This document shows, piece by piece, positions 2,584-17,072 of a stretch of DNA of 32,000 nt. The stretch covers positions 960,001 to 992,000 of the forward strand of contig NC_007335.2 in the NCBI RefSeq assembly GCF_000012465.1, written 5' to 3'. The stretch comes from Prochlorococcus marinus str. NATL2A (GTDB taxonomy: Bacteria > Cyanobacteriota > Cyanobacteriia > PCC-6307 > Cyanobiaceae). The translations under genes and the position numbers were made by a program. The notes under the pieces were generated by a model. The model was not told the origin of the DNA and searched no databases. It saw nothing but the letters and a program-made list of their open reading frames with translations. Positions within the stretch are counted from its first letter, which is position 1, and each line of letters opens with the position of its first letter.

Positions 2584-3241
2584 TTAAGTAATTATTCCTA
2601 CACGGCTGACAGTGGTTTGTTCTTATATTTTTTGAACTTCTCAGGACAACCTTCTTTTTATACTGAGCTTTAGAAGGTTGTTTCTTTGAATAAAAAACGT
2701 CAGTGCTCCTCCCCAGAAGCCAATCAATAGATGACCAATTCCATTGATTGCCTGACGTACACTTATCCTAGATTTTCCTTTTCATCAATAGTTCTGTAGG
2801 ACCGTACGTCTTAAGTAGGGAAACCGTAAAAAGAATAATCTCTTTTAACTAGACATTTAAAAAGGGCCCGAGGGGGCCCTTTTTCTTTACCGATTCTTTG
2901 GAAGCTTCTGGATATTGGTGGCCTGGGGCCAAGTGTCTAGTAGAAAGGCTTTTTTACTCCGTTAGGGCACCTAAACGATGCAGAGGAGCTTCGACTGAAT
3001 TGACGCACCTAAATCATTGATCCTTGTCGCATCAGACGAATAGCCTACTTATTCATTGAGAATGTTGGAGCAGGAACCAGAATTCAGTTCGCTTCTCTTA
3101 AATACTCAGGTGGAGTGTCGACCATCAATGGTGCCTCTGAGCTCAACAAACGTATCTTTGCTCTATTCGCACCTCAACGCAATCAGCCTTAATGCCCATT
3201 GCATTTCCACTACACCTGATCAAAAATAGTAAGTTTGGGGT
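2584..3241. repeat. direct repeat copy A (~658 bp, non-coding, G+C-enriched)
   Basis: Aligns end to end with 28612-29270 in the same orientation. By manual alignment 2584-2728 is identical, 2729-2849 carries about 15 substitutions plus one 1-nt indel, and 2850-3241 carries 2 substitutions. All six frames are broken by stops. Confidence 0.95.
2859..2884. terminator. bidirectional intrinsic-terminator-like hairpin inside repeat copy A
   Basis: Sequence AAAAAGGGCCCgaggGGGCCCTTTTT: a 6-bp GC stem flanked by an A-run and a T-run, so it reads as a hairpin plus U-tract on either strand. Confidence 0.7.
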
Positions 3242-3273
3242 ATAAGAATTTTATCTCAAATCAAAACATCAAT

Positions 3274-3618
3274 ATGTCGAGAGAACAAACAAGCAAACAA
3301 GATCAAATAAGCAATTTCGGTGAAATAGCTAAAGGATGTAGAACTGATAATCAAAAAATTGAATTTTTCGATTCATCTAAGGAAGCATTTTTCACAGATT
3401 CAATTGAATCAACAAGCTCGGTTAATGAAGATATCCCTAAAGACTTAGACGACGGGTTTTACGTATACGCAAATATGAAAAAACTTAGCGAAACGGAGCT
3501 TGAAGAGTTGAAAAGTCTGCCATGGAAAGAATACCCAGAAAACTTTAAGATATTTTTATTCGATTTTTGCATCTTAAATGGTGATGCATATTCAAAATAC
3601 TTCCCCAATTCAAAGTAG
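3274..3618 (+). CDS. hypothetical acidic protein
   Basis: The track ORF 3235-3618 starts at a TTG that lies inside the repeat end. The first ATG (3274, MSREQTSKQ...) is the more plausible start. No family recognised. Confidence 0.5.
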   Translation: MSREQTSKQDQISNFGEIAKGCRTDNQKIEFFDSSKEAFFTDSIESTSSVNEDIPKDLDDGFYVYANMKKLSETELEELKSLPWKEYPENFKIFLFDFCILNGDAYSKYFPNSK

Positions 3619-3850
3619 TTTTAGTGATTTTCAGAGGTGTCAGCAAAGACAATCCTGAAAAAGCGATCGTTGTAGTTCAAGCTTAAGAGGGTGTCTTAGG
3701 AAAACATATACAAGAGAACATTGAAATATTTGAAAAAAAATGGTGCAGTCATGACTACGGCAGAACTTAGTCTCTGGTCTTGAGGATCCAAATTGCTTAG
3801 GTATAAATAAAGAATCAAATCAAAAGATTAGTCTCAATTAAATCTGAACA

Positions 3851-4120
3851 ATGATTAGAAATCTGTTTTTCTTAATTCTCGGAGCATTTAGCGGTCTTTG
3901 GTTTATATGGCCTCAAATCATTACGACCAAAGGTTGGGAATGCACAAAAGATGTTATTGCATCTTCTAATGAAGATTTAACAGATATTGAATCATTAGTT
4001 GAATCATTGCCAAACAGAATCAAATTAGGCTTGGCTGTTTCCCCAAAAACATTGCTAAAGAGAGAGAACCTTACTCGTATCGAGAAGCTTAGAATTGTTG
4101 GAGATGCTTGCTTTAGATAA
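3851..4120 (+). CDS. hypothetical membrane-anchored protein
   Basis: 89-aa ORF with N-terminal helix LFFLILGAFSGLWFIW. The overlapping antisense ORF 3913-4131 looks like a shadow. Confidence 0.55.
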   Translation: MIRNLFFLILGAFSGLWFIWPQIITTKGWECTKDVIASSNEDLTDIESLVESLPNRIKLGLAVSPKTLLKRENLTRIEKLRIVGDACFR

Positions 4121-4174
4121 TTTAAAACCACAAACGAAAATTATCATTATAAATATCAACAAAAAGTTGGCGTC

Positions 4175-4678
4175 TTAACTTATCAAAGCAATCGCTTCTT
4201 TTAATTCGTTCGCATGATTGATCTCATCTTGAGCAATTTCACGTATCCTCTGATCGTTTGGATTAACTGTTAGATACTTTGCATAAGTTTCATACGCATG
4301 CTCTTCAATTTTTATATTGATATCGTATGCATTTGATGGAGAGAGTAAGTAATAAAAAACCATTACCCAGTAATAGAAGAGCACTAAATGCCTAGCAAGA
4401 AATCGATCAACCCAATATCTATTGCCGCTTCGTGATTCCATCTCCTCTAAATGCTCCGTCTCATTGATTGCTTGGTAAAAATGAGCCTTCATAAGCTTGT
4501 TACTTAAAGGAGTCTTTAGGCCAAGCGATTCTTGTAAATGCAAAACTGATAAGAATGCAAAATAAGGTGCTCTAGCGATTACCTCAAGAACCCAAAAACG
4601 TTGAATCGGTCTACCCTCGTAGATCCGATCAAGAATACTTACACTAAAATCTAAAACAAGTGAATTAAAACCTTTCAT
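4175..4678 (-). CDS. ptox: plastoquinol terminal oxidase (PTOX / alternative-oxidase family di-iron protein)
   Basis: 167 aa with the di-iron carboxylate motifs LEVIARAPYF, NETEHLEEME, EEHAYETY and DEINHANEL (ExxH repeats), as in the AOX/PTOX family. Confidence 0.85.
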   Translation of the reverse strand: MKGFNSLVLDFSVSILDRIYEGRPIQRFWVLEVIARAPYFAFLSVLHLQESLGLKTPLSNKLMKAHFYQAINETEHLEEMESRSGNRYWVDRFLARHLVLFYYWVMVFYYLLSPSNAYDINIKIEEHAYETYAKYLTVNPNDQRIREIAQDEINHANELKEAIALIS

Positions 4679-4796
4679 AGTCCCTTAGCTAACTATTTAA
4701 GTATAAATACTTAGCAAAAGAAGTTGAGTAATAACTAATTTATTTAACTATCGATAGCTACTTAAGCTGAATATGGAAGTGGACCAAAGATTAAAT

Positions 4797-4973
4797 CTAT
4801 CTTGCTCGAACAGGCTGGTAAGTAGGAATCATCTTTCCTCCACCGAAATCGTCATCATCATCTGGAAGCGCTCTTGAGATTAGTTCTACCAGAACTAGAG
4901 CAGCCATAGGATAGAAACACCATAAAACAGCTTTCCAGATGGGAAATGAGTCAACTAGCTGAAGCTCAGACAT
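4797..4973 (-). CDS. small single-TM protein with poly-Asp/Gly tail (58 aa), family member 1
   Basis: Hand translation gives MSELQLVDSFPIWKAVLWCFYPMAALVLVELISRALPDDDDDFGGGKMIPTYQPVRAR. The tail motif is shared with 7408-7584 and 29707-29841. Confidence 0.5.
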   Translation of the reverse strand: MSELQLVDSFPIWKAVLWCFYPMAALVLVELISRALPDDDDDFGGGKMIPTYQPVRAR

Positions 4974-5186
4974 GTATCAGAAAATTGTTTGCACAAACCT
5001 AACTGATCTAAAAATATTTAGTGTTACGGTTAGCACGAAGTGAATGTTTATCTAATCGAAACTTGTGTAAAAAAATTACTTCAAGCCGTCTAAGTTTTCC
5101 ACAGCTTCAGAGTCACTAAATAACTCCAAGATCTAAATAAAAAGCAATTCCAATAAAAAAGACCCTAGGTATGGTGTCCTACGGGC

Positions 5187-5203
5187 CTGGGTGATGGGGA
5201 TCT
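5187..5203 (+). repeat. 17-nt motif CTGGGTGATGGGGATCT, copy 1
   Basis: Exact 17-mer found again at 5343-5359. Each copy lies downstream of an AAAAAGACCC start-like motif (about 5156 and about 5275). Confidence 0.8.
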
Positions 5204-5342
5204 TATTTTTAACTGTTTTTCAAGCAAATTGCAACCCCTACCATATCTGGTGTTAGAAAGATTAAAAAAACAGAAAAAAAGACCCATATCTGGAATTATT
5301 AGCTTGCGTAATATGTACACAGCGAGTAGTATTTTCGAATTA

Positions 5343-5359
5343 CTGGGTGATGGGGATCT
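5343..5359 (+). repeat. 17-nt motif CTGGGTGATGGGGATCT, copy 2
   Basis: Exact repeat of 5187-5203, located 14 nt upstream of a terminator hairpin. Confidence 0.8.
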
Positions 5360-5372
5360 CTCAGTATCTACT

Positions 5373-5395
5373 CCCTCAAATTTGAGGGTTTTTTT
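5373..5395 (+). terminator. intrinsic terminator
   Basis: CCCTCAAATTTGAGGG palindrome followed by T7. Confidence 0.65.
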
Positions 5396-5489
5396 ATGCC
5401 ATGAATTTCTGCAGATAATTTCTAAGATGGATTAAGGCAAAATTAGTGAAAAACTGCTCTGATCCTTATTTTTTTCCCAAATCGAGAAG

Positions 5490-5702
5490 ATGGAACAAGT
5501 AACTGATGCAATTGGTAATCCCACAGCACTCTTAGTAGAGAGAATTTTTTGGTTGGGGTTAGGTGCATTTTTAGGACTGGCAATAATTACTTCTTTACTA
5601 AGAGGATTAAAAGAAAGTAAAAACAAAACGACACCAATTTCACCTGATCAATTAGAAAATCTTGCAAAAAAAGCGATCCAACAAAACAGTGATAGCAATT
5701 GA
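5490..5702 (+). CDS. small membrane protein, hypothetical
   Basis: 70-aa ORF with TM helix IFWLGLGAFLGLAIITSLL. The antisense ORF 5432-5626 is judged a shadow. Confidence 0.45.
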   Translation: MEQVTDAIGNPTALLVERIFWLGLGAFLGLAIITSLLRGLKESKNKTTPISPDQLENLAKKAIQQNSDSN

Positions 5703-5992
5703 TATTGGTTATCAGATATTTTTATAGCCACAAACAAATTTACTTATGGTCGTTGGGGCGAGAACCGTACAATCAGCTACCACTGATTAGATGATGAGCA
5801 TATATGCTTAATACATATTCACAAAAACAATGAAATTAGTTCCTTACATATTCATGGCTGTTGCTATCTTCTCAGAAGTTTCAACAATTGCTACGACTCC
5901 TATTATCTAATTGAATCTCATTAATTGAGTATTCAGACCTAACGCGTTCGGGTGAATACCGACGTTAGATTGTATATAACTGATTTGTATTC

Positions 5993-6253
5993 ATGCTCAA
6001 AAAGATATTTAGGGCTGCTAGTTTTTTAGCTTTGTCTGTTTTTTTAACTTCGACAACTATTTTTTCAGGAATTATTCCTGCAGCCGCCGCTCAAATGGGT
6101 TCTGATATGAACGAAGATAACTCTATGGGTATTGTGATCGAAGAGTCTAGTGATGCCTTGGATGGTTCGAAAACTAGTGCTGCCCCAGACCTCGGAGATG
6201 ATCAAGCGTTTCCTTTTATCCCAGGTTTTGGTAAAAATTCCGGAAAAGACTGA
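5993..6253 (+). CDS. small secreted acidic protein with C-terminal FPFxPGxG motif, family member 1
   Basis: Signal-peptide-like N-terminus (FLALSVFLTSTTIFSGIIPAAAA), an acidic middle, and the C-terminus GDDQAFPFIPGFGKNSGKD. Paralogous to 29971-30216. Confidence 0.6.
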   Translation: MLKKIFRAASFLALSVFLTSTTIFSGIIPAAAAQMGSDMNEDNSMGIVIEESSDALDGSKTSAAPDLGDDQAFPFIPGFGKNSGKD

Positions 6254-6354
6254 GTATCCTTCTGTTGAAAGTATTGATTGATAATAAATTACTAATTTTT
6301 TCGAAAGCTATAAAAAATCCACAGATATAAGTGGTAATTAGCTAAACCATTTTC

Positions 6355-6459
6355 ATGGAAAAATGGGAAACAAAAATAATCATTTTTGTTATGTTTGCAG
6401 TGCTTGCAATAGGGTCAATTGCGCCATTGATCAGGATGATCAGTGATCGTATTTCTTAA
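6355..6459 (+). CDS. tiny membrane protein (34 aa), hypothetical
   Basis: Hand translation gives MEKWETKIIIFVMFAVLAIGSIAPLIRMISDRIS, with one TM helix. Confidence 0.25.
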   Translation: MEKWETKIIIFVMFAVLAIGSIAPLIRMISDRIS

Positions 6460-6591
6460 GAATTAATTTGCTTGGACAAGCTGAGATTATTGAGGAACTA
6501 TTCCTAACGTGATTGCTTTTGGCATTTTTTGCTTATTTAAATTTTTATTTTGCAAAAACTGGAAAAAATGGATTAAATGCTCGAATGGAAC

Positions 6592-6620
6592 AAAAAAAAT
6601 CTAGAGAAAAATCTCTAGAT
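6592..6620 (-). terminator. intrinsic terminator of the hli pair
   Basis: On the minus strand: ATCTAGAGA-tttt-TCTCTAGAT, a 9-bp stem followed by a T-run, located 30 nt downstream of the hli stop at 6651. Confidence 0.6.
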
Positions 6621-6650
6621 TTATATGAAGATTGATTTGCCTAAAGCTAT

Positions 6651-6947
6651 TTAAAATATGCCAGGAATAATTTGACCAGTAGTGATATAAGCGCCAAGTA
6701 AAGCAATCATTCCAATCATTGCCCAACGGCCATTGGTCTTTTCTGCTTCCTCAGGGTAGTTGGAATAGTTTTCAACTAATTGAGTTTGTACTTGGGTAGC
6801 AAACATGTTTTGCTTGCCATATTCAGTAATGATCTGGTTAGAAGCAGAACTGTAAGCAGGGATTCCTGTTGGATCAACAGATTGACCTTCTGATTGATTA
6901 TCAGTTGGATCTATTGATTGATCAGAAACTGGATTACTAGAAGTCAT
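6651..6947 (-). CDS. hli: high-light-inducible protein (HLIP, one-helix CAB-like)
   Basis: C-terminus EEAEKTNGRWAMIGMIALLGAYITTGQIIPGIF. I place the start at the internal ATG (MTSSNPV...) because the longer track ORF would overlap the upstream hli. Confidence 0.85.
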   Translation of the reverse strand: MTSSNPVSDQSIDPTDNQSEGQSVDPTGIPAYSSASNQIITEYGKQNMFATQVQTQLVENYSNYPEEAEKTNGRWAMIGMIALLGAYITTGQIIPGIF

Positions 6948-6955
6948 ATAAGAAC

Positions 6956-7201
6956 CTAAAAAATACCTGGAATGATTTGACCTGTTGTTGCGTAAGCACC
7001 GAAAGCAGCAATAAAGCCGATCATTGCCATCCAACCATTAAACTTTTCTGCTTCTGGAGTCACGAGATTAAACTCAAATAATGGCCATGAATGTAAAGGA
7101 AAAGTAAAGGAATGTAAAGGGGGCACCCGTACACAGCAAAAGTTATCAGGGGTATTAGCTGAAGCAATATTTTTTATCCACGGTCTAAATAACAATTCCA
7201 C
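6956..7201 (-). CDS. hli: high-light-inducible protein (HLIP); start codon uncertain
   Basis: C-terminus PEAEKFNGWMAMIGFIAAFGAYATTGQIIPGIF. There is no in-frame ATG between 7201 and the motif, so the N-terminus may be shorter if a non-ATG start is used. Lies 8 nt upstream of the next hli. Confidence 0.75.
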   Translation of the reverse strand: MELLFRPWIKNIASANTPDNFCCVRVPPLHSFTFPLHSWPLFEFNLVTPEAEKFNGWMAMIGFIAAFGAYATTGQIIPGIF

Positions 7202-7228
7202 TAACTTTGTTGAACTTAATTCAACTAG

Positions 7229-7405
7229 ATGGATTTAATACCAGGTGTAGTTCTTTTCTTTGGAGCCATTGGAACTGTGGCTTTACTTGGTTGGGATACT
7301 TTCCAAAATCGTAAGCCAATTACTAAAGCTGAAATGCAGCAGTCTCGTGGAACTAGAGCAGCTAAGCCACAACAAAAGAGAAGAGGATTATTTAACAGAG
7401 GATAA
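7229..7405 (+). CDS. small single-TM protein with basic tail (58 aa)
   Basis: Hand translation gives MDLIPGVVLFFGAIGTVALLGWDTFQNRKPITKAEMQQSRGTRAAKPQQKRRGLFNRG. The stop is 2 nt before the next ATG. More protein-like than the antisense track ORF 7225-7422. Confidence 0.5.
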   Translation: MDLIPGVVLFFGAIGTVALLGWDTFQNRKPITKAEMQQSRGTRAAKPQQKRRGLFNRG

Positions 7406-7407
7406 TT

Positions 7408-7584
7408 ATGGGTGAAATTCAAACATACGCTTCAAACTCAGGAGATTTTAATTTCCTTTTCGTTCTAATCATTGTTGGGACTTATCTTCTTTATGAGGTT
7501 GGAAAGGCAATAATGGACAACAACGATGATGATGACATGGATGGAGGAATGACGATGCGTGTAGCAGATGGAGCACAGGCCTGA
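7408..7584 (+). CDS. small single-TM protein with poly-Asp/Gly tail (58 aa), family member 2
   Basis: Hand translation gives MGEIQTYASNSGDFNFLFVLIIVGTYLLYEVGKAIMDNNDDDDMDGGMTMRVADGAQA. Tail motif as in 4797-4973 and 29707-29841. Confidence 0.5.
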   Translation: MGEIQTYASNSGDFNFLFVLIIVGTYLLYEVGKAIMDNNDDDDMDGGMTMRVADGAQA

Positions 7585-8055
7585 ATTGACTACCAAAATA
7601 ATATGTACTAATTGACAACAAAAATTTGTCGTCTCTAAACAAGTTCAAGGGTGAATTGAATATATAATTAGTCATCTATTTAATTAAAAATTTTGAGCGA
7701 AGAAAATATCAAAAGAAAAATAGATGCTTTATTAAAAGAACTTCAGGAGAAAACAGGAGTTTCGGATGAAGAGATGGACGAATTTAAAAAAATTATGGAA
7801 CTAGCAGATTTTTCTCAAGACCAAGAATAATTTTGGTATAAGTCGGGTTGAATGAAGGTTTAGCGAGATGCGAGTTTTGACCAAATAAGCAGTACCAACA
7901 CGTTAAACAATGCATATCCAATAGCAATTTGAATTTGGTAAAAATAACCAACAATCGAAGAGGATCCCAAAATAATCAAACTAGTAATAAAAATATCTCT
8001 TGAAAAATTCACCTAAAAAAATCAAGCACTATAAATATTCAGATTGAAAATGAAA

Positions 8056-8214
8056 TCATGAAAGTCTTATTTGATTTTCAATCGAATAAGCATTGCTTGT
8101 GCAGGCCTCATTGCCTGTAACTTGAGAAACAGCAATAACGAGAAGGCTTAGAGAACCAACTGCTAAAGAAATTGTTCTAATAGCACTGGCTTTCTTAGAG
8201 ATTTTCTTGCTCAT
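8056..8214 (-). CDS. small secreted/anchored peptide (52 aa), paralog of 25725-25876
   Basis: Translation from the internal ATG gives MSKKISKKASAIRTISLAVGSLSLLVIAVSQVTGNEACTSNAYSIENQIRLS: a basic N-terminus, a hydrophobic core, and an IENQ motif shared with the paralog. A phased CTTAACTT array lies 31 nt upstream. Confidence 0.55.
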   Translation of the reverse strand: MSKKISKKASAIRTISLAVGSLSLLVIAVSQVTGNEACTSNAYSIENQIRLS

Positions 8215-8245
8215 ATAAATAATATAATTATTAAGAATCCTAAGC

Positions 8246-8275
8246 TTCAAGAATGCAAGTTAAGTACAAGTTAAG
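8246..8275 (-). promoter_or_regulatory. candidate Pho box (PhoB site): three 8-mers with 11-bp phasing
   Basis: Minus strand reads CTTAACTT-gta-CTTAACTT-gca-TTCTTGAA. It matches the published cyanobacterial Pho-box form of PyTTAAPyPy(T/A) 8-mers separated by 3-nt linkers. Confidence 0.5.
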
Positions 8276-8337
8276 GAAAAGAAACCAAACCTTAACCTTA
8301 ATGCGTTGGCAAAAATTTACATGAAGAGAGTCTGACG

Positions 8338-8544
8338 TTACCAGTAGCAATAAGTAGCAGTAATGATACTTACAACAGGTTTTGGAAATTTAATTGGGAT
8401 CTCTTCAAAATTTAGGGCAAGCCAATCACGACAAATCTCATTTTCTATTTGTACATTAGAAATTAAATTTTTATTTAATACATCTTCTTTAGAGTTGTCA
8501 ACCAAATTATTTGTCCAAAGGATGAGAGTTAAAATCAATGGCAT
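8338..8544 (-). CDS. hypothetical protein (68 aa)
   Basis: Track ORF with an AGGAG-like motif about 8 nt upstream of the ATG (minus strand TAGGAGATTAATAGA-ATG). Preferred over the overlapping + strand ORF 8363-8560. Confidence 0.4.
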   Translation of the reverse strand: MPLILTLILWTNNLVDNSKEDVLNKNLISNVQIENEICRDWLALNFEEIPIKFPKPVVSIITATYCYW

Positions 8545-8949
8545 TCTATTAATCTCCTAGATGAAAATTACATAATTTTTAATCAAGAAAGATATGATCC
8601 GTTGTTTGACTTCCTTCTAAATAATCTATTGAACTAAAAAGTGCCAAAGAAGTAGTTAGTAAAACAACAAGGCAAAAAGATGTGAAGTATAGGTATAAAT
8701 AGCTTAATGATAATTCACCACTAATTATCACAATAAAAAAAATGATTTAAATCTATGATAATTTAAATTCCCTTATAATTGATTATGAAGGAGTTAAGAT
8801 ATGGTTATAATATTTAAAGAAGTTTAACGCAATATATCTAAGTTAACGTAATTATAATCATATGTTAAACAGTATTTAAGCTTAAATAAACTTTGCCTTT
8901 ATTTGACAAGTTAAATAGATGCTAGGTTTAGGAAAATTTTTATAAGCTG

Positions 8950-9582
8950 ATGACTTCATCTTTTCAGGAATCCCTGTCCGAAGAAAGTCAGTTTTATGTA
9001 GAAATTTTAGAAAATATGTATCATTCAAATCATATTGTTAATATTCCTTCAGGAGAAAAAGTATCACTAAGCAAAAGTTATCTTTGGTTAGTTGTAAGAG
9101 GTGTCATAAAAATACAAACTTTAACTCTAGATGGAGAACTATCAATACTAGGTTTGGTGAGCAGGGATGAGGTCTTTGGCCAGCCATTATCTATATCGAA
9201 TCCATATGAAGCATATGCATTGGGCAACTGTGATCTTTTACCAATTTCATTAATTGAGATCGAACAAAACCCAACCTTATCTATATCCATATTTAATGCT
9301 CTCAGGAAAACTTATCAGCAAACTGAAATGCTTTTGTCAATCAAGGCAATCCGAGGAATGGAAGACAGAATTAAGTCCTTGTTTTTATTTTTAGCAGAGA
9401 GATATGGACGAGATTATAAAGATGGAATTGTCATAGATATTCGCCTTACACATCAGGAAATAGCTAATTTATTAACAACAACTAGAGTTACAGTTACAAG
9501 AATAATGAGTGGTTTGAAAGAATCAAAATTTTTAATCCTAGAAAGAAGCAAATATGTATTAAAGAAGCACTCAACTATATAA
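8950..9582 (+). CDS. ptrA: Crp/Fnr-family transcription regulator, PtrA-like
   Basis: 210 aa with a cNMP-binding-like N-terminal domain and the C-terminal HTH HQEIANLLTTTRVTVTRIMSGLKE. Its position directly upstream of phoBR matches the picocyanobacterial ptrA context. Confidence 0.75.
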   Translation: MTSSFQESLSEESQFYVEILENMYHSNHIVNIPSGEKVSLSKSYLWLVVRGVIKIQTLTLDGELSILGLVSRDEVFGQPLSISNPYEAYALGNCDLLPISLIEIEQNPTLSISIFNALRKTYQQTEMLLSIKAIRGMEDRIKSLFLFLAERYGRDYKDGIVIDIRLTHQEIANLLTTTRVTVTRIMSGLKESKFLILERSKYVLKKHSTI

Positions 9583-9668
9583 GTTTTTTTTAATGATCAG
9601 CTCACTTCATTCAATTTTCTTATAAATCAACTATAATTGATATAATCAAAAATGTTAGCTTAACCTCT

Positions 9669-10406
9669 GTGACCAGTCGTGTCTCTGACAAGATATCCAA
9701 GGCTAAAAGACTACTTATCGTTGAAGACGATAAGAGCATTCGCGAAACGCTCAATGAAGCTCTTGTTGCAGAGGGTTACCAAGTCGAGGCTTGCAAGACT
9801 GGTGATGAAGCTGAGGCTAGAGTTTTCTCTCAGTTCGACACACGTAAAAAGATTGATTTAATTGTTTTAGACTTAATGTTACCCAACCTGAATGGAATAG
9901 AGCTTTGTAGAAGAGTCCGAAAAAACAATATAAAAACACCTATTCTTATTGTCAGCGCAAAAGACAGTGAATCTGATCGTGTATTGGGATTAGAAGTTGG
10001 AGCTGACGATTATTTGATAAAGCCTTTTGGCTTAAATGAACTAATTGCAAGGTGTCGAGCAATTCTCAGAAGATCTGAAACTAATCATGAGAAAGCTCAA
10101 GATTCTTCCCAAGTCCTTAGCTACAAAAATATATCCTTATACAGACAGGAATACAGGGTCACAAAAAACAGTAAGGAAATAAATCTTGCCCCTAAGGAAT
10201 ACAAAATCATGGAATTGTTCCTGCAGAATCCAAAGCGGGTGTGGAGTCGTGATCAACTTTTAGAACAAATTTGGGGGATTGATTATGTGGGGGATTCTAA
10301 AACTGTAGATGTACATATTAGGTGGATTAGAGAAAAAATAGAGGATGATGCATCGGATCCAGACTATATAAGAACCGTTAGAGGTTTTGGCTACAAATTT
10401 GGGTAA
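9669..10406 (+). CDS. phoB: phosphate regulon response regulator (OmpR/PhoB family)
   Basis: GTG start. Receiver domain (LLIVEDD, LIVLDLMLP, SAKD) plus winged helix (VDVHIRWIREKIE, IRTVRGFGYKF). Followed 9 nt later by the histidine kinase. Confidence 0.9.
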   Translation: MTSRVSDKISKAKRLLIVEDDKSIRETLNEALVAEGYQVEACKTGDEAEARVFSQFDTRKKIDLIVLDLMLPNLNGIELCRRVRKNNIKTPILIVSAKDSESDRVLGLEVGADDYLIKPFGLNELIARCRAILRRSETNHEKAQDSSQVLSYKNISLYRQEYRVTKNSKEINLAPKEYKIMELFLQNPKRVWSRDQLLEQIWGIDYVGDSKTVDVHIRWIREKIEDDASDPDYIRTVRGFGYKFG

Positions 10407-10415
10407 AGGCGAATT

Positions 10416-11549
10416 ATGCTAAAAAAAATATTAAAAAAGCTACTCAAATTCATAAAAAAGATTCTCAGCATTAGAGGAGTTGGAACGACCATAAGAAATG
10501 TTAGAAAGTGGCCTAAACGTCAACAATTTGTAGATGTCTCTCAAATCCTAAATTGGGTCGATGATATTAATCAGGGTTGGATAATTATTACGTCTAAGAA
10601 TAAAATCCTGTTTATCAATAAGCAAGCAAAGAAATTATTGTCAATTAAAAAGGATTCAAAAATATTAGGGAAATCCCTCTTTAAACTTGAAATCCCAGAT
10701 GAGATAAAGAGAGAAATTCAAAAGCTTAATAGGGCAAAGACATTTAAAAGTATTCCTTATTTCTTTCATGAAAAAGAACTTGAAATTTCATTAATGCCTG
10801 GCTCAAAATCCACTACGCTTATACTTTTAACTAATAAGAGGTCTTTAGATTATCAACGTCAACTACAAGAGAGAATGTTAGGGGATGCCGCTCATGAATT
10901 AAAAACTCCATTAACTGCACTCATGTTGCTTGGAGATAGATTGGAGGATTTGGTCAAGAAAAAAGATAGACCATTAATAAAGAGATTAAGAAAAGAAATT
11001 TTAAGACTAAAGTTGATGGTGAATGATTTACTGGAGTTGTCCAGATTGGTCAATTCATCCTCAGTTCAGGAAGAATTGACAAAAACAATTAATATGGAAG
11101 AAATTGTACTCAGTTCATGGAATACCCTTAAGCCGCTCGCAGATAAGAAAAAATTAAATTTAGTTAATACATCGAAAACTAATTCTTTAATAGAGGGTAA
11201 TTCTGAGAAATTATATAGGGTTGTTTTTAATTTGCTTGATAACGCAATTAGATATTCTCCTGATTCAGCTAACATCAATACTCAAATTCATGAAGATGAA
11301 AAACATCTAATTTTAAGTATCAAAGATGAAGGGCCAGGATTAAGTAAAGATGATCTGAAAAATATGTTTCAACGTTTTTATAGAGGTGATCCATCTAGGT
11401 ATAAAAATAAACGTATAGGTAGTGGTTTAGGTCTCTCAATAGCTCAACAAATAGTTGTTAATCACAAAGGGGCTATTGAAGCTTCTAATGATACTAATGG
11501 TGGTACTTTGATGAAAATCAAATTACCTCTACAAAAACAGATTGTTTAG
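10416..11549 (+). CDS. phoR: phosphate sensor histidine kinase
   Basis: H-box HELKTPLTAL, N-box NLLDNAIRYSP, G1 DEGPGL, G2 GSGLGLSI. A PAS-like segment precedes the H-box. The N-terminus is basic and has no obvious TM helix. Confidence 0.9.
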   Translation: MLKKILKKLLKFIKKILSIRGVGTTIRNVRKWPKRQQFVDVSQILNWVDDINQGWIIITSKNKILFINKQAKKLLSIKKDSKILGKSLFKLEIPDEIKREIQKLNRAKTFKSIPYFFHEKELEISLMPGSKSTTLILLTNKRSLDYQRQLQERMLGDAAHELKTPLTALMLLGDRLEDLVKKKDRPLIKRLRKEILRLKLMVNDLLELSRLVNSSSVQEELTKTINMEEIVLSSWNTLKPLADKKKLNLVNTSKTNSLIEGNSEKLYRVVFNLLDNAIRYSPDSANINTQIHEDEKHLILSIKDEGPGLSKDDLKNMFQRFYRGDPSRYKNKRIGSGLGLSIAQQIVVNHKGAIEASNDTNGGTLMKIKLPLQKQIV

Positions 11550-11890
11550 TAAATATCTGGACAGTTTTTTCTTGCTATAAGTCGTTTCAAGTCTCGAACA
11601 GCATCACCAGTTAATAGATAACTACCATCATTTTCTTCATACCAATAGGTTTGTCTTTTACCAATTGCAGACCAGAATCTATCTGGGAGTGATGGCATAT
11701 AAAAATCAACAAACGCTGAAACACCGTATTCATTTTCAGACCTCATATCATCACATGCCTTATTCATTTCTTCTACATTATGTATGTAGTATCTTGCTGC
11801 TTGCCAAAAGTATTTATCCTCTGCTTTTGATGTTTCTAGCAAACAAAAGAATAGATAACTAAAAATAGCTAAAAGATATTTTCTCTTCAT
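11546..11890 (-). CDS. secreted hypothetical protein downstream of the PhoA-like gene
   Basis: Start placed at the internal ATG, which gives the signal peptide MKRKYLLAIFSYLFFCLLETSKA. The longer track ORF would run through the upstream terminator. The 3' end overlaps the phoR stop by 4 nt in convergent orientation. Confidence 0.6.
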   Translation of the reverse strand: MKRKYLLAIFSYLFFCLLETSKAEDKYFWQAARYYIHNVEEMNKACDDMRSENEYGVSAFVDFYMPSLPDRFWSAIGKRQTYWYEENDGSYLLTGDAVRDLKRLIARKNCPDIY

Positions 11891-11918
11891 GAATTTAAAT
11901 ACATCGAATTTAATGGAT

Positions 11919-11954
11919 AAAAAAAAAGGGTACAACATCTATATGCTGTACCCT
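11919..11954 (-). terminator. intrinsic terminator after the PhoA-like gene
   Basis: On the minus strand the AGGGTACA...TGTACCCT hairpin is followed by T9. Confidence 0.55.
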
Positions 11955-11972
11955 AAATGTTAGTAGATTGAT

Positions 11973-14237
11973 TTAAAGCTTTCCTATATTTAGGAATAAT
12001 GTTTCTCCAGTTGATTTTTTTGAAGTTCCATCATTGTCAGTTGATATGTAAGCGGTACCATCTTTTTTGATAGCTAGGCCTTCAACTTTTTCAAGAATAA
12101 ATCCACCTGTTGAAGTTAGATCTGATCTCAAATCCTTAACGAACTCTTTCTTAACCAATGGATATAGAATTGGTGTAGAAGTATCATTCGAAATTGGATC
12201 AGGATTAATATCAGAAACTTTGATACGGAAAATAGACTTTAATTTAGCCTTTGCTCCGTAATTGCTATCTCTTTCAATTGCATAAAGATATCCGTCATGA
12301 TGAGTCAATTCGGAAATTCCTACGCCACCTTTTCTACCTTGCTTTTCGAATACATAGTTAACGGCTCCCCATTCATTGCTTTCTAAGTTGTAAGTAACAA
12401 TTTTTGTTGTATTAAATGGATCATCCGCCCATGGCTTTTGTTGTGCCATGTAAAGAGTATCTCCAACTTTTGCTATTCCTTCAAAGCCAGCTTTCGTTTG
12501 ATATTGAATAAGGGAATAGGGTACATCTATTTTTTCAAGAATTTCACCATCTGAGCTGATGTGATAAACAGCAGCTGGAGCTTGTTCTATCCCCGGACCA
12601 CCTTTCTCTTTGAATCCTTCTGTGGAAACATAAAAACCACCTTTACCATCAAGTGTAATTCCCTCCATATCCAAAAATGGAGCAGTCTTTCCTTTTAACT
12701 TGATGTCTATAGCAGTATCAAGTATGGCAGGGCTGTAATTTGTATCGATCACATAAATTCTTGGCTGTGACGAAAATGTGCTGTCGTTAACGGCATAAAT
12801 CTTTCCATCGCCTCCGTCAACCATTCCGCTAATCGATCCCCAACTAACAAAGTCATATCCACCTTCATTAGTGATGTGTGGATAAATTGCATCTGCCTTT
12901 TGGAGCTCGTAAGTCATTACATGTGAAGCCAAGCCAGGTTCTTTCTTGTTGTAATCTTTTTCGTTAGAAGATGCGATTAAACCACGATTAGGAATTGCGA
13001 CAAATCCTTCTGGTCCAATACCAGATGGTAATAGTTGAAGGAGTGTTGGCTGACTTAAATCTGATACATCATATACAGCTACAACTCCAGCTCTTTCAGC
13101 TCCTACAAACATATAAGGAGTACCTTTGATTTTCGCATAAGTCACTGATTCAGGTTCTACTCCTTTCTTTCCAGCACGATCGTCTTGAAAATGACCAATT
13201 TGTGCAATAGCTCTTTCTAGTCTGTTTCCATCTTCATAAACAACAGAACCATCTTTATTCCAAATCGTCCAAGATCTAGAACCTCCTCTTTTTGCCTGAC
13301 CTTCTTTCTTTAACTTGTAATCTCCCTCGTTAGCTGTCGCAAAATGATCGTTATCAATCCAAGTTAGTCCGTCTGGTTCACGTCTAACGTTTTTTAGCTT
13401 TTTCTTGAATGTATGTGCTCCATCTTTTTTAGTATCCATTCCTGCCATTTGACTTACTAGACCTGCTGAAAAATGGGAGATAACTTCACCTTTTTTATTT
13501 AGTACCACCAAGTGATTATTTTCTTGCAGTGAAACAACTGTTTCACCTTTTTTATTAATCGTTAGAAATTCTGGCTCAGGGTCACTTGGTGCTATTTCAG
13601 AAAGACCAGAGACATCTGCGAAGAACATTGAATCACAATCAAGATCTCCTCCTTTTAGCTTTACAAAAGCAACATTACCTGCAGGCATTTGTGGAATTAC
13701 ACCATCATTAAATTCTTCATCTCTTTCATTCTCAATCGCAACTGCGATAAATTTTCCACTTGGGGCAATTGCGACACTGTCAGGTTGTCCACCAACGTTG
13801 CATTCTTTGGACTTAATACCTGTTTTTAGATCGTATGAGGTTATTGATCCTGATGGATTTGTGTAGCTTTCAGATGTATTAATACCTACAAAGATTTTAC
13901 CTTTACGCTCCATCACTGATGTTGGTTCTGCATCTAACTCGATAATCCCTTCACCTTTAGGATCTGAAGGATCTGTAATATCTATTATTCCTAGAACACC
14001 AAGATCACTATCAGTGTAGATAAGTGTTTTTCCATCCTTAGTTGCTGTGATGGTCTCTGCAGATGTTTTAGTTGTGGACTTTACACCAGATGGAAGATTC
14101 CTATTGATAGCAAAAGAAGAAACTCTGTTGAAATTCTTATTTGAAGCATCCCGCCAACCTGCAAGACTTGATGTGCTTGAGGAGGCTAAGAGAGCTAGCA
14201 CTGCTGAGCCACATGCTAGTACAACCCTTTTTTTCAT
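11973..14237 (-). CDS. phoA: secreted beta-propeller/phytase-like phosphoesterase (atypical PhoA-like alkaline phosphatase of marine picocyanobacteria)
   Basis: About 754 aa from the internal ATG, with signal peptide MKKRVVLACGSAVLALLA. Repeated propeller-like segments and EG(I/L)A motifs (GFEGIAKV, VEGLAIKKDG). Synteny phoR / this gene / porin / pstS and a strong Pho-box-like array upstream. The function is inferred. Confidence 0.65.
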   Translation of the reverse strand: MKKRVVLACGSAVLALLASSSTSSLAGWRDASNKNFNRVSSFAINRNLPSGVKSTTKTSAETITATKDGKTLIYTDSDLGVLGIIDITDPSDPKGEGIIELDAEPTSVMERKGKIFVGINTSESYTNPSGSITSYDLKTGIKSKECNVGGQPDSVAIAPSGKFIAVAIENERDEEFNDGVIPQMPAGNVAFVKLKGGDLDCDSMFFADVSGLSEIAPSDPEPEFLTINKKGETVVSLQENNHLVVLNKKGEVISHFSAGLVSQMAGMDTKKDGAHTFKKKLKNVRREPDGLTWIDNDHFATANEGDYKLKKEGQAKRGGSRSWTIWNKDGSVVYEDGNRLERAIAQIGHFQDDRAGKKGVEPESVTYAKIKGTPYMFVGAERAGVVAVYDVSDLSQPTLLQLLPSGIGPEGFVAIPNRGLIASSNEKDYNKKEPGLASHVMTYELQKADAIYPHITNEGGYDFVSWGSISGMVDGGDGKIYAVNDSTFSSQPRIYVIDTNYSPAILDTAIDIKLKGKTAPFLDMEGITLDGKGGFYVSTEGFKEKGGPGIEQAPAAVYHISSDGEILEKIDVPYSLIQYQTKAGFEGIAKVGDTLYMAQQKPWADDPFNTTKIVTYNLESNEWGAVNYVFEKQGRKGGVGISELTHHDGYLYAIERDSNYGAKAKLKSIFRIKVSDINPDPISNDTSTPILYPLVKKEFVKDLRSDLTSTGGFILEKVEGLAIKKDGTAYISTDNDGTSKKSTGETLFLNIGKL

Positions 14238-14273
14238 TGAGTAAAATTCAGTCACCTATTGTTTAGCTGACAG

Positions 14274-14325
14274 AAGTTAAGAGAAAAACTTTTTAAGTTA
14301 AAAAAAAGGTTAGCAAAAAGTTAAG
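14274..14325 (-). promoter_or_regulatory. candidate Pho box array (five 11-bp phased positions, three strong 8-mers)
   Basis: Minus strand reads CTTAACTT-ttt-GCTAACCT-ttt-TTTTAACT-taa-AAAGTTTT-tct-CTTAACTT. It ends 37 nt before the ATG at 14237 and lies downstream of the porin terminator. Confidence 0.6.
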
Positions 14326-14346
14326 AAACATTTATCAACTATGCAT

Positions 14347-14378
14347 AAAAAAAAGACCCCTAATGTAGGGGCCTTTTT
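14347..14378 (-). terminator. intrinsic terminator after the porin gene (palindromic, could act on both strands)
   Basis: A8-GA-CCCCTA-atg-TAGGGG-CC-T5. On the minus strand this is a hairpin followed by T8. Confidence 0.7.
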
Positions 14379-14398
14379 GAAAAGTTTAAGTAAGAAGT

Positions 14399-15385
14399 TT
14401 AGAACTTGTACTTAACGTTAAGAGCTGCGCCAGATAGATCCTCTCCACCTACACCAGCATCTTCTGATGTCCAGATCATTGGTGTGATCTTAACGCCATC
14501 AGCAATCTTGTAGTCATACCATGCTTCGTATGTAAGCTTCTCATCAGTTCCCTTTTGAGTTCCTACGCCTACGCCAAGTGTACCTGGGCCTGCATCAGCT
14601 TCTACACCAACAACCCAGTTTTCATCTTCTTCACCCTTTTCAGGATCCATTGAATCAAAATAAGCACTTACGGTAACAGGGATTGATTCTGGCTGGAAAT
14701 AGGCACCAATACCGTATGCAGTGTATGTATCACTGCTGTCACTGTATGTAAATGTTCCGCCAAAACCATCTCCATCAAAACCAAGCTGAGCAGTTACATA
14801 GTCTTCAGTATCGTCACCAAAGATTCCCTTACTTGCATCATCACCATCAGCAGCTGTCATGTTAAGAGAAGCATTCCAGCCATTATCTCCTGCATAAGCG
14901 ATAGTTGCACCTGTTCCGCCTTCACCGGCAAGAGCATAGTATCCATCAGCTGCTAATAGAACTGGCTCACCATAGACAGATGTAGTACCAGCAAGACCTT
15001 GATCTCCATCCATCTTTGGTCCGATACTTATTGTTAAGTCTTCGGCAAGAGGGAATTGGTAATAAAGATCAGTAAGAGTTGGGGTTTTACCGCCGCCCTT
15101 ACTGCTTTGAGGATCGATTCCACCAGCTAAGGTTTTACCACTTCCAATTTCAAATTTTCCAACAAGCTTGTCTTCACCAGTAAAACTAGTAGTAGCTTTC
15201 CACTTCATTTCATATGAAGAATGAAGCTCGTCTCCATCTGCTGAATCTGCATTAGAACCAACAGTGAAATTTACACTGCTTTTTAATTTTGTAGTTGGGC
15301 TAAATGCAGTATCTGCATTAACAGCAACAGGAGCCATAAGGCCTAATGCTGCAGGAGCTATTAATAAGCTCTTAAAAAATTTCAT
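14399..15385 (-). CDS. outer-membrane beta-barrel porin (P-stress cluster porin)
   Basis: Signal peptide MKFFKSLLIAPAALGLMAPVAVNA from the internal ATG. Gly/Asp/Thr-rich alternating beta-strand pattern and terminal ...NVKYKF. Divergent from pstS. Confidence 0.8.
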   Translation of the reverse strand: MKFFKSLLIAPAALGLMAPVAVNADTAFSPTTKLKSSVNFTVGSNADSADGDELHSSYEMKWKATTSFTGEDKLVGKFEIGSGKTLAGGIDPQSSKGGGKTPTLTDLYYQFPLAEDLTISIGPKMDGDQGLAGTTSVYGEPVLLAADGYYALAGEGGTGATIAYAGDNGWNASLNMTAADGDDASKGIFGDDTEDYVTAQLGFDGDGFGGTFTYSDSSDTYTAYGIGAYFQPESIPVTVSAYFDSMDPEKGEEDENWVVGVEADAGPGTLGVGVGTQKGTDEKLTYEAWYDYKIADGVKITPMIWTSEDAGVGGEDLSGAALNVKYKF

Positions 15386-15469
15386 CGTGTCCTCACACAA
15401 GATAAAAAGGTAATGGATTTAACATCCAAACGAAACTTATAAGATGTACGTTCAGGAATGACTAAAGTT

Positions 15470-15499
15470 AGGTAATGGTTTGGTTAAGGTTTAACGAAG
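15470..15499 (-). promoter_or_regulatory. candidate Pho box, porin-proximal
   Basis: Minus strand reads CTTCGTTA-aac-CTTAACCA-aac-CATTACCT with exact 11-bp phasing. Weaker than the PhoA-like array. Confidence 0.35.
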
Positions 15500-15564
15500 T
15501 AAAAATTAATTTTTTTTTAGAGTAAAAATCGTAATTTTGAAATTTATTTCGTTTTAAAAAATGC

Positions 15565-15594
15565 AAATTAATCTTGGTTAATCGAAAGGTTAAG
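15565..15594. promoter_or_regulatory. candidate Pho box, pstS-proximal
   Basis: Minus-orientation reading is CTTAACCT (a perfect consensus 8-mer, 15587-15594), ATTAACCA, ATTAATTT. TTAA cores are spaced 12 and 10 nt rather than 11/11. About 100 nt upstream of the pstS ATG. Confidence 0.4.
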
Positions 15595-15698
15595 AACACA
15601 CCAAGGAAAATTGATGAATTGCTAATTTGAATTTGAAATAAAAATAATTAGATCAATTAAATGCTATGAAATAAGAGCCAGTTTTTTTATTAGGCCTC

Positions 15699-16670
15699 AT
15701 GACCTTCGCCAAGAAGGCCCTCATCTTTACTTCTTTGCTTGCAGTGGGCGCAGGCATGTCCGCAACTGCAGCTAGTCGTCTTAGTGGAGCAGGTGCATCC
15801 TTCCCCGCTAAAATCTACACTCGTTGGTTTTCCGATTTAGCAAAAGAGGGTGGACCTCGTGTTAACTATCAAGCTGTTGGTTCAGGTTCTGGCCGTAAAG
15901 CATTCATTGATCAAACCGTAAACTTCGGTGCTTCTGATGATCCAATGAAAGCAAAGGATATTGCAAAAGTTACTCGTGGATTAGTTCAAATCCCAATGGT
16001 TGGAGGCACAATTGCCTTTGGCTACAACTACGATTGCGACCTTAAACTTACTCAAGAGCAAGCTGTTCGCGTTGCTATGGGTAAAATCTCTAATTGGAAA
16101 GAAGTTGGTTGTCCAGCAGGAAAAATGACATGGGCACATCGCTCTGATGGTTCCGGTACAACCAAGGCTTTCTCAAACTCCATGCAAGCTTTCTCTAAGA
16201 CATGGAATTTAGGAACAGGTAAATCTATTGCTTGGCCTGCTGGTGTTGGTGGAAAAGGTAACGCAGGTGTTGCAGGCGTAATTCGTAATACTCCTGGTGC
16301 AATTGGTTATGTCAACCAGTCATACATTAAAGGAGAAATCAAGGCTGCCGCTCTTCAAAACTTATCTGGAGAGTATTTAAAGCCATCTACTGAGTCAGGA
16401 GCTAAAGCTCTTAATGGAATTACGTTAGATGAAAATTTAGCAGGTAAAAACCCCAACCCAAAAGCTAAGGGTGCATACCCAATCGCTACGTTGACATGGA
16501 TTCTTGCTTATGAAAAAGGCAATGGTAGAAATACTAAAGCCATTCAAAAGTCACTTAACTACTTGCTAAGTGATAAAGCTCAGGCTAAGGCTCCTTCTCT
16601 TGGATTCGTACCTCTTAAAGGTGAGATTCTTAAAAAATCACGTGCTGCCGTAAAGCGTATTGGTAAATAA
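15699..16670 (+). CDS. pstS: periplasmic phosphate-binding protein of the Pst ABC transporter
   Basis: 323 aa with a signal peptide. Contains SGAGASFPAKIY, QAVGSGSGRKAF, HRSDGSGTT and GAIGYV, the classic PstS motifs. Confidence 0.95.
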   Translation: MTFAKKALIFTSLLAVGAGMSATAASRLSGAGASFPAKIYTRWFSDLAKEGGPRVNYQAVGSGSGRKAFIDQTVNFGASDDPMKAKDIAKVTRGLVQIPMVGGTIAFGYNYDCDLKLTQEQAVRVAMGKISNWKEVGCPAGKMTWAHRSDGSGTTKAFSNSMQAFSKTWNLGTGKSIAWPAGVGGKGNAGVAGVIRNTPGAIGYVNQSYIKGEIKAAALQNLSGEYLKPSTESGAKALNGITLDENLAGKNPNPKAKGAYPIATLTWILAYEKGNGRNTKAIQKSLNYLLSDKAQAKAPSLGFVPLKGEILKKSRAAVKRIGK

Positions 16671-16687
16671 ATTAAACTCATGATCTT

Positions 16688-16714
16688 AAAAGGAGGCATT
16701 AGCCTCCTTTTTTT
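16688..16714 (+). terminator. intrinsic terminator of pstS
   Basis: AGGAGGC-atta-GCCTCCT followed by a T-run, 18 nt after the stop. Confidence 0.75.
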
Positions 16715-16743
16715 ATTGTCTATTTTTTGCTTGCTAGTAGCTT

Positions 16744-16773
16744 CTTAACTTAAGCTTAAAAAAAGCTCTTTAA
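16744..16773 (+). promoter_or_regulatory. Pho-box-like phased 8-mers (doubtful)
   Basis: CTTAACTT-aag-CTTAAAAA-aag-CTCTTTAA, but it ends 1 nt before the ATG at 16775. It is therefore too close to act as a promoter for that ORF as annotated. Confidence 0.25.
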
Positions 16774-16774
16774 A

Positions 16775-16972: not shown

Positions 16973-17017
16973 TTATTTCATTTAACAGTTATTTGAACGA
17001 ATTTTTAAAATCTTTTT

Positions 17018-17047: not shown

Positions 17048-17072
17048 TCTTACTTTAGATATAAGAAAAAAA

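Follow-up and report, generated by a model that had tools for sequence, protein, structure and literature searches.

A conserved non-coding repeat, candidate locus of a structured RNA, brackets the phosphate-acquisition island of high-light Prochlorococcus

Prochlorococcus is the most abundant phototroph of the ocean and has very few protein regulators. Its phosphate-acquisition island is a textbook case of niche adaptation by means of flexible genes. Here we describe a 658-bp direct repeat that lies at the two borders of the island in Prochlorococcus marinus str. NATL2A. The window analyzed is a stretch of 32,000 nucleotides (assembly GCF_000012465.1, contig NC_007335.2, positions 960,001 to 992,000 of the forward strand), and all coordinates given below are counted from its first letter. 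The two copies of the repeat unit, named A and B, and the cargo that they enclose are arranged as follows.

2584..3241, probably minus strand: unit copy A, non-coding, at the left edge of the phosphate-acquisition island; direct repeat of 28612-29269
3242..28611, no strand assigned: cargo between copies A and B, according to the Pfam and Rfam results
28612..29269, probably minus strand: unit copy B, at the right edge of the island, with the DUF2389 gene on one side and a 64-aa gene on the other

The 26 kb bracketed by the two copies are the phosphate-acquisition/PTOX/hli island plus its neighbouring genes. Pfam and Rfam identify in it PTOX, the tandem hli genes, ptrA (of the Crp family), phoB, phoR, a phytase-like phosphatase, pstS and chrA, together with an MFS transporter, gap, ACR3, the Cyano-1/Yfr2 RNA and the DUF2389 gene. 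This context, which the repeats have in all related lineages, was not seen by the preliminary description of the locus, made from the sequence alone, which presented the unit as a G+C-enriched, non-coding repeat with a small RNA (sRNA)-like core and a perfect GC hairpin.

The differences between the two copies are distributed very unevenly along the unit. In a base-by-base alignment, positions 2584-2728 of copy A show 0 differences from copy B, positions 2729-2849 show 14 substitutions and one 1-nt indel, and positions 2850-3241 show 2 substitutions, located at 2989 and 3054. Six of the substitutions lie inside 2761-2803, which is the interior of the stem formed by GACGTAC and GTACGTC. The zones of 0 and 2 differences, the indel and the six loop substitutions had been recorded exactly in the preliminary description, whose count of about 15 substitutions in the middle zone is corrected here to 14. 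The motifs that it quoted are all present at their positions, namely CAATCAAT (2721-2728) with ATTGATTG (2743-2750), GACGTAC (2754-2760) with GTACGTC (2804-2810), the motif GGGAAACC, and the long-range complement of ACTGAATT (2994-3001) with AATTCAGT (3081-3088).

The G+C enrichment of the unit also holds when counted: 41.5% in the unit and 44.7% in its right part, compared with 32-33% in the 1-kb flanks and 34.6% in the whole window, with exactly 50 G+C among the 100 nucleotides of 2861-2960, as had been counted by hand. Equally G+C-rich stretches of 658 nt are found in only 20 of 627 windows across the sequence. The unit is enriched in 8-nt inverted complements as well, with 15 of them against 3.8 +/- 2.6 in shuffled sequences.

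Homologous loci, which carry L numbers here, were reached by three routes. A 30-aa spurious open reading frame (ORF), occasionally called by gene callers inside the unit, led to three metagenome contigs; a conserved 23-mer searched against metagenome contigs led to 14 more; and the flanking DUF2389, Thiamine_BP and 64-aa proteins, with their homologues, led to loci in NCBI genomes. A scan of a genome collection with a 26-mer of the terminator-like hairpin returned one single-amplified genome only, and the loop of this motif proved to be variable. Many of the metagenome contigs stop within the unit, as would be expected of a repeat.

In all the loci recovered, from metagenome contigs and NCBI genomes, the unit is restricted to two syntenic places. 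Position A lies behind the block of Thiamine_BP and small ORFs (L001, L003, L005, L012, L014, L019 and L033), and position B extends from the DUF2389 gene to the 64-aa gene (L006, L009, L013, L017-L029 and L047), both sites being occupied across every high-light-type Prochlorococcus lineage recovered. The two copies were found on a single contig in the window, L019, L029, L008 and L047, where they enclose a cargo of 26, 9.5, 3.9, 5.1 and 5.5 kb, respectively. L020 and L033, which correspond to the window and belong to contig JBJBCH010000002.1 of GCA_047285905.1, likewise have a cargo of 26 kb. The gene content of the cargo varies between genomes, with phoBR and phoA present or not, a phosphonate transporter in L024 and remnants of phoBR in L026. 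The divergent locus L029 has identical repeat boundaries, TTAAGTAA at the left and AAGTTT at the right. Beside the homologues of the flanking genes in low-light and other lineages (L030-L032 and L039-L045, including SS120, AE017126, and MIT 1223), nhmmer detected no unit. BLASTN gave no match to the unit among phages and plasmids, and four exact-pattern scans of viral contigs gave no match to its core motifs.

A mobile repeat of the miniature inverted-repeat transposable element or insertion sequence type was considered and rejected, since nhmmer finds only two copies in the window and the unit always takes the same two syntenic positions. No large inverted repeat associated with the unit was found in the window. 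Direct repeats flanking flexible, niche-adaptive genes could also be attachment sites duplicated by the integration of a mobile element such as a tycheposon or an integrative island. In Prochlorococcus, tycheposons carrying phosphate-assimilation modules as cargo have been described, and these elements are rare and transient (bioRxiv 10.1101/2020.12.28.424599). However, the pair described here occupies the same site in every lineage, and 658 bp is far longer than an att core. Moreover, ARAGORN detects no tRNA or tmRNA, full or partial, in the window, and in the large ORFs scanned there Pfam finds neither an integrase nor any other mobility domain, so that we consider such an origin very improbable.

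The unit is non-coding, as the preliminary description had claimed. Each of its reading frames contains 9-16 stops, and the longest open stretch has 61 codons. In the strongly conserved right part of the unit, hereafter the right module, the variable sites are spread over the three codon phases as 25/25/24, that is, with no periodicity, and 1-nt indels occur inside otherwise conserved unit sequence. All right-module ORFs with a length of at least 12 aa are disrupted in 3 or more of 11 lineages, and the 57-aa ORF is shortened in L029. None of the NCBI genomes examined at position B has a gene call inside the unit. The ten longest stop-free six-frame segments have no match in Pfam; the 60-aa conserved frame, compared with 5.8 billion proteins, retrieved one stray called ORF and no protein family; and the exact look-up of 10 candidate ORFs retrieved the 30-aa spurious ORF only.

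The unit could alternatively derive, as a decayed fragment, from a protein gene or rRNA of a more G+C-rich donor, or be a gene for a small protein or type I toxin, as its G+C content above that of the flanks and a hydrophobic 41-aa minus-strand ORF in copy B might suggest. The ATG of this ORF is missing from copy A and from most homologues, and the frame is interrupted by stops or frameshifts in L002, L009, L010 and L017. A type I toxin, or a dual-function RNA with a small ORF similar to Yfr6/Yfr9, was rejected because the 41-aa ORF is not conserved. As for a decayed gene, a pseudogene would not exceed its functional neighbours in conservation, as the unit does, and no match to Rfam (nothing credible with E up to 10), Pfam, a protein family, a phage or a plasmid was found. 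The preliminary description had itself raised the case of a fragment of a known protein gene or rRNA, and the Pfam, Rfam and protein-family comparisons retrieved nothing of the kind. An explanation along these lines is barely credible.

According to its conservation over about ten distinct lineages, the unit is composed of three parts: a fast-evolving left module, the GC hairpin, and a nearly invariant right module. The elements recognized in them are the following, each with its probable strand where one is assigned.

2646..2681, no strand assigned: hairpin 1, ACAACCTTCT/AGAAGGTTGT with the 16-nt loop TTTTATACTGAGCTTT; best-conserved part of the left module
2705..2720, minus strand: hairpin G, read on the minus strand as GCUUCU-GGGG-AGGAGC; frequent A/G polymorphism opposite U
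2721..2750, minus strand: hairpin 2, CAATCAAT/ATTGATTG, with a hypervariable 14-nt loop
2754..2810, minus strand: hairpin 3, GACGTAC/GTACGTC plus an inner TCCTA/TAGGA (minus-strand reading), with a fast-evolving interior
2858..2885, no strand assigned: GC hairpin, perfect AAAAAGGGCCC-GAGG-GGGCCCTTTTT with A/T runs on both sides; in copy B at 28887-28914
2905..3213, minus strand: conserved core of copy A (right module), candidate 5' domain of a minus-strand RNA; low variability and no conserved ORF
28934..29242, minus strand: conserved core of copy B; 2 positions differ from copy A
3223..3231, minus strand: putative -10 element, TACTAT/TATTTT, at the right repeat boundary, proposed from the sequence

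The left module (2584-2857) is fast-evolving except for hairpin 1 (2646-2681), and the right module (~2905-3213) has the lowest density of variable sites of the whole unit. The right module retains 86.7-93.4% identity in lineages in which the flanking genes have 73-84%; in L029 it reaches 86.7%, compared with 73-78% in the adjacent coding sequences, and in L047 91.8%, compared with 79-84%. By these identities, strong purifying selection acts on the core.

Four helices of the left module (the outer and inner helices of hairpin 3, hairpin 2 and hairpin G) were submitted to a covariation test in an alignment of 27 sequences in minus orientation. Within their 26 pairs, 92.9% of the cells form standard pairs, compared with 29-42% in controls in which the helices were slid. 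Nine of the 26 pairs are changed on both sides, against 2.6 expected as the shuffled mean, and on each of five measures the observed value is reached by 0 of 500 shuffles. With compensatory changes exceeding those of the shuffled and the slid controls, the left module qualifies, on comparative grounds, as a structured non-coding RNA (ncRNA). The two stems noticed by the preliminary description in the diverged patch thus turn out to be helices of the RNA type, with compensatory changes in the homologues. In hairpin 3, 88-89% of the cells are paired, and double changes affect 2 pairs of the outer helix and 3 of the inner one. In hairpin 2, read on the minus strand, 97.7% of the cells are paired and compensatory changes are found in 4 of the 8 pairs; in L047, the sequence of this stem is largely different and the pairing is retained. 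Hairpin 1 is the conserved element of this module, with only 6 variable sites in 2644-2673 and 203 of 209 cells forming Watson-Crick pairs. Its loop TTTTATACTGAGCTTT is nearly invariant, being altered only in the most diverged lineages, L008 and L029.

These helices also bear on the question of the strand. Read on the plus strand, the standard pairs of the left-module helices fall to 87.0%, against the 92.9% of the minus strand. Hairpin 2 has 12 G·U cells on the minus strand and 1 on the plus strand, which by our count correspond to about seven separate changes against none. In hairpin G, 95.5% of the cells are paired on the minus strand and 75.0% on the plus strand, an asymmetry that is biased, as this helix was picked from the minus-strand fold. 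The z-scores of the minimum free energy, given as minus/plus, are -4.92/-3.53 for the left part and -3.22/-2.59 for the right part of the unit in the window, and -3.74/-2.57 and -3.67/-2.52 for the whole unit of L029 and L047, respectively. The RNAalifold energies are -157 on the minus strand versus -151 on the plus strand for the right module, and -118 versus -111 for the left module. The G·U asymmetry and the modelled folding z-scores both favour the minus strand.

Between the two modules stands the perfect GC hairpin of the preliminary description, which the sequence confirms inside 2858-2885. It consists of a 6-bp stem and a 4-nt loop with flanking A5 and T5 runs, and across lineages the stem is kept with changed pairs (GGGCCT...AGGCCC in L009) and the loop is variable. 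This hairpin looks like a bidirectional intrinsic terminator, putative for now, that on the minus strand would be placed downstream of the core. In its GC stem-loop with A5/T5 runs it resembles the Rho-independent bidirectional terminators, and its sequence would suit a terminator on either strand. Contrary to them, it is located inside a conserved element and not between two protein genes. A simple terminator scan lists no site at this hairpin, because its rule counts A/T pairs (the T run) within the stem, which leaves too few T behind it. At the opposite end of the core, the TATTTT of the putative -10 element is retained in all the homologues reaching it, and the strong conservation begins just downstream. 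A Pho-box-like 8+3 periodicity can be seen by eye at 3187-3217; it matches the consensus poorly and overlaps a hairpin. The long-range pairing of ACTGAATT with AATTCAGT, which the preliminary description had put forward for the right arm, is not supported: none of its pairs has changed in a compensatory way, and in three lineages one pair is broken. The two changes that affect a single side of this pairing both give G·U on the minus strand.

The unit might also encode a plus-strand sRNA of ~290 nt, starting near TAATTAT (2589-2595) and ending at the GC terminator, as the preliminary description had envisaged. AT-rich, -10-like motifs are found at both repeat boundaries, facing inward; on the plus strand, TTTCTTTG comes after hairpin 1; and the GC hairpin has A and T runs on both sides, with the better T tract on the plus strand. 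The right arm would then be a convergent minus-strand RNA sharing the terminator, a layout that would account for where the repeat ends, or the two strands would produce a sense/antisense pair, such overlapping ncRNAs being known in MED4 from the case of Yfr8/Yfr9 (PMC2518516). These proposals have to face the left-module helices, with their 92.9% of standard pairs on the minus strand against 87.0% on the plus strand and the 12 wobble cells against 1 in hairpin 2, as well as the minus-strand fold of the left part, which is ~10 kcal/mol more stable and has the lower z-score. In addition, L010 and L014 retain the -10-like motif of the left boundary only poorly. A plus-strand sRNA ending in the terminator is therefore disfavoured, and we regard it as doubtful, whether with a convergent partner or as part of an antisense pair. 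Of the readings contained in the preliminary description, the structured RNA of the minus strand is the one favoured, with the modification that it probably spans the whole unit and not the right arm only.

Several observations weigh against the reading of the unit as a structured RNA of the minus strand. The loop-extension allele of L002/L010/L028 has a T·G pair of the plus type. The covariation check proposed in the preliminary description, significant for the left-module helices, gave in the right module only 3 pairs with double changes, a number equalled by 9 of 500 shuffles, and 97.3% of paired cells compared with 97.2% in shuffles, in both cases with very little variation to draw on. The strand-neutral helices of the right module contain 15 cells of the G·U type and 6 of the A·C type, corresponding by our count to ~7 and 6 separate changes, with no clear strand asymmetry. 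Behind the GC hairpin, it is the plus strand that has the better T tract (TTTTTCTTT). The sequence just past the terminator was searched for an internal minus-strand promoter and yielded only the conserved and weakly -10-like TGTCTAAT, and no 3' terminator was found on the minus strand at the left boundary. The main weakness of the minus-strand assignment is that it puts the covarying left module downstream of the terminator, so that the modules may instead form a convergent pair, the left one on the plus strand and the right one on the minus strand, or both strands of the unit may be transcribed.

The two copies evolve in concert. Within a genome, they differ at 18 positions in the window, 6 in L019 and 0 over ~635 nt in L029, whereas copies in the same position differ at 26-29 sites between the window and L019. 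L029 shares with the window ~65-76% identity in its left part and 84-87% in its right part. Within L019 and within L029, the two copies have the same sequence in 2729-2857, a stretch that differs strongly between genomes. The copies are thus homogenised by gene conversion, and the gene-converted flanks supposed by the preliminary description are borne out by these within- and between-genome differences. Its accompanying proposal of paralogous sRNAs with different loops is not, as the patch is the same in both copies of L019 and of L029. Because the copies of these two loci are identical in 2729-2857, the three divergence zones that separate copies A and B are a conversion mosaic specific to the window and not a paralogue difference that has been kept. 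In L004, L016 and L002, the unit preceding the A-type gene carries ~20-30 nt of the B-type right flank (TCTAGCTAAGATCTAATCAA; compare 3242-3275 and 29270-29301 in the window), so that the edge of the homogenised tract varies by genome. Among close genomes, with 98-100% identity in the flanking coding sequences, the unit varies more than these do, its left part being 90-97% and its right part 96-99% identical, which suggests that alleles are exchanged between lineages.

One locus shows the unit in an arrangement that is not found in the window. L002 (JGI 3300006565 contig, 3022 nt) contains, at 395-1926, pstS (reversed)-DUF2389, which is the left flank of copy B, then a single unit, and then the block of the 114-aa gene, DUF3764 and PTOX, which is the right flank of copy A. 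This junction is the one expected of an excised circle or of a tandem duplication of the island, and could also be an assembly chimera formed through the repeat.

These observations bring up the explanation that the unit consists mainly of long homology arms, left behind by recombination or serving it, that act at the DNA level in the gain, loss, amplification or exchange of the cassette, with its RNA features being secondary. In keeping with it, direct repeats stand exactly at the island edges in all lineages with a cargo of 3.9-26 kb, the L002 junction is as it would result from an excised circle or a tandem duplication, the lower identity of the unit than of the flanking genes in close genomes fits allele exchange, and part of the cargo is inverted between genomes. 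Recombination arms, however, need no sequence constraint, whereas here the core exceeds the coding flanks in conservation across clades and the helices covary. Furthermore, no recombinase gene or tRNA is present in the window, and the deletion product (left flank A, unit, right flank B) occurs 0 times among ~35 unit-carrying loci. L002 may be a chimera of the assembly, and the core was not found in the viral contigs scanned. As the main explanation of the unit this is unlikely. A role in recombination is nevertheless compatible with an RNA gene, and would be a possible second role of the unit, not an alternative to it.

At the gathering thresholds of Rfam 15, the only match in the window is Cyano-1 (23401-23465), with no match in the unit, so that the Rfam search proposed in the preliminary description, once run, assigned the unit to no family. 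With E up to 10, the best match in 2400-3400 is Atu_C8, with 21 bits compared with a threshold of 50, and it covers the terminator hairpin only. The unit-carrying loci L019 and L029 have no Rfam match either. No earlier description of the element was found in the literature searched, and it is apparently undescribed.

Among known RNAs, the closest in kind is Yfr103, an ncRNA of 290-328 nt, multi-copy and highly abundant, with conserved sequence and structure and of unknown function, reported from Synechococcus and the low-light strains SS120, NATL1A/2A, MIT9303 and MIT9313, and not from high-light strains (Hou et al. 2016, PMC5069720). A palindrome has been described upstream of it, and its published genes in Synechococcus CC9605 include one at 520334-520624 (minus strand) and others with starts at 946997 and 1437033. 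The unit resembles it as a long picocyanobacterial ncRNA in paralogous copies, its core plus hairpin measuring ~360 nt and being present in two copies per genome; this is a likeness in kind, by description only. Contrary to Yfr103, the copies of the unit hold fixed positions bracketing one island. The Yfr ncRNAs of MED4, high-light-specific and of 80-290 nt, lie in or near hypervariable islands (Steglich et al. 2008, PMC2518516); some of them are paralogous (Yfr11/Yfr16), some have decayed small ORFs, and some form pairs (Yfr8/Yfr9 and Yfr6/Yfr14). With these RNAs the unit shares the association with an island, the high-light distribution and, for some of them, the presence in paralogous copies. 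None of the conserved 12-mers of the unit was found in the supplementary files of PMC2518516, and the primers and 5' ends published there for Yfr8, Yfr9 and Yfr17 do not match the unit. Yfr8/Yfr9 differ from it by their near-complete antisense overlap and by a small ORF that is conserved in several strains, which the ORF of the unit is not. In the case of Yfr17, the likeness is limited to a 10-nt motif before its start and concerns the right flank of copy B, where one further element was recognized.

29276..29281, plus strand: candidate -10 element (TAAGAT) of the 64-aa gene on the right side of copy B, in divergent orientation to the unit

The sequence CTAAGATCTA, found at 29270-29285 just right of copy B, recurs in MED4 directly ahead of the mapped 5' end of Yfr17. 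There, ctaagatcta lies immediately before this 5' end, and Yfr17 is located a few genes upstream of phoB (PMC2518516, supplement). From this 10-nt resemblance, TAAGAT would be the -10 element of the downstream 64-aa gene, and MED4 would share this flank.

Like dispersed RNA genes, such as rRNA operons and duplicated sRNA genes, the unit is homogenised within a genome and diverges between genomes. Like long direct repeats flanking islands, its copies are potential substrates for deletion, duplication and cassette exchange. It departs from the latter in being an undescribed ncRNA locus and in the stability of the pair at both edges of one adaptive island across clades. The unit is most likely a picocyanobacterial structured ncRNA whose copies form island-flanking repeats.

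The explanation that we adopt, with moderate confidence, is that of a conserved non-coding locus for a structured RNA, probably of the minus strand, that has been duplicated as the repeats bracketing the island and is subject to gene conversion. We infer its transcription, strand, promoter and termination from the sequence. Transcription would start at a promoter at the right repeat boundary, with its -10 near 3223-3231, and would proceed through the highly conserved 5' domain of ~310 nt, from 3213 down to 2905, to the GC hairpin (2885-2858), which would act as a terminator, possibly a leaky one. The products would be a short form of ~0.36 kb and perhaps a read-through form of ~0.63 kb, the latter with a faster-evolving 3' domain of the covarying hairpins 3, 2, G and 1. 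As a guess, the RNA would be a trans-acting or protein-binding regulatory RNA.

Other features were observed in and around the island. The Cyano-1 RNA, an sRNA of the Yfr2 family, is encoded within the island at 23401-23465 of the plus strand (63.4 bits), and a second Cyano-1 RNA lies in L039 at 9426-9491. The tandem hli genes are paralogous (6651-7201, minus strand) and contain the repeat family D3 (6652-6749 and 6957-7054, 71% identical over 98 nt). They adjoin the PTOX gene (4175-4678, minus strand), and both belong to the cargo always found between the units. A 333-aa ORF between the phytase-like phosphatase and pstS (14399-15400, minus strand) has no Pfam match. The segment of pstS, a 65-aa gene, MFS, gap and arsR (15699-21456) is inverted in the window with respect to most other genomes (L013, L019 and L021-L028), in which pstS is located immediately upstream of DUF2389 and on the other strand. 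Relative to these same loci, ptrA-phoBR-phoA, chrA and ACR3 are extra genes of the window. Outside the island, the 1.1 kb to the left of copy A (1421-2583) contain very small ORFs only (33-59 aa), among them an hli-like one (1543-1644), and these tiny ORFs are annotated as separate genes in other genomes (L033-L038).

The copies of the ncRNA locus may, in addition, double as homology arms, a tentative idea according to which the edges of the island would be open to recombination with any incoming DNA that brings a single unit or a pair of them. The ~300-nt core, almost identical across high-light Prochlorococcus, would provide portable, near-universal homology arms. Unequal crossing-over between the copies would lead to the excision, amplification or swap of the phosphate-acquisition cassette, and the succession of left flank B, unit and right flank A in L002 would be the footprint of this process. 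If true, this would represent an integrase-free mechanism for the long-noted, phylogeny-independent distribution of phosphate genes in Prochlorococcus. The repeat unit accounts for the assembly breaks at this locus. As a strongly constrained ncRNA locus at both borders of the island, it represents a new candidate regulator and, at the same time, a candidate recombination substrate behind the turnover of the cassette.

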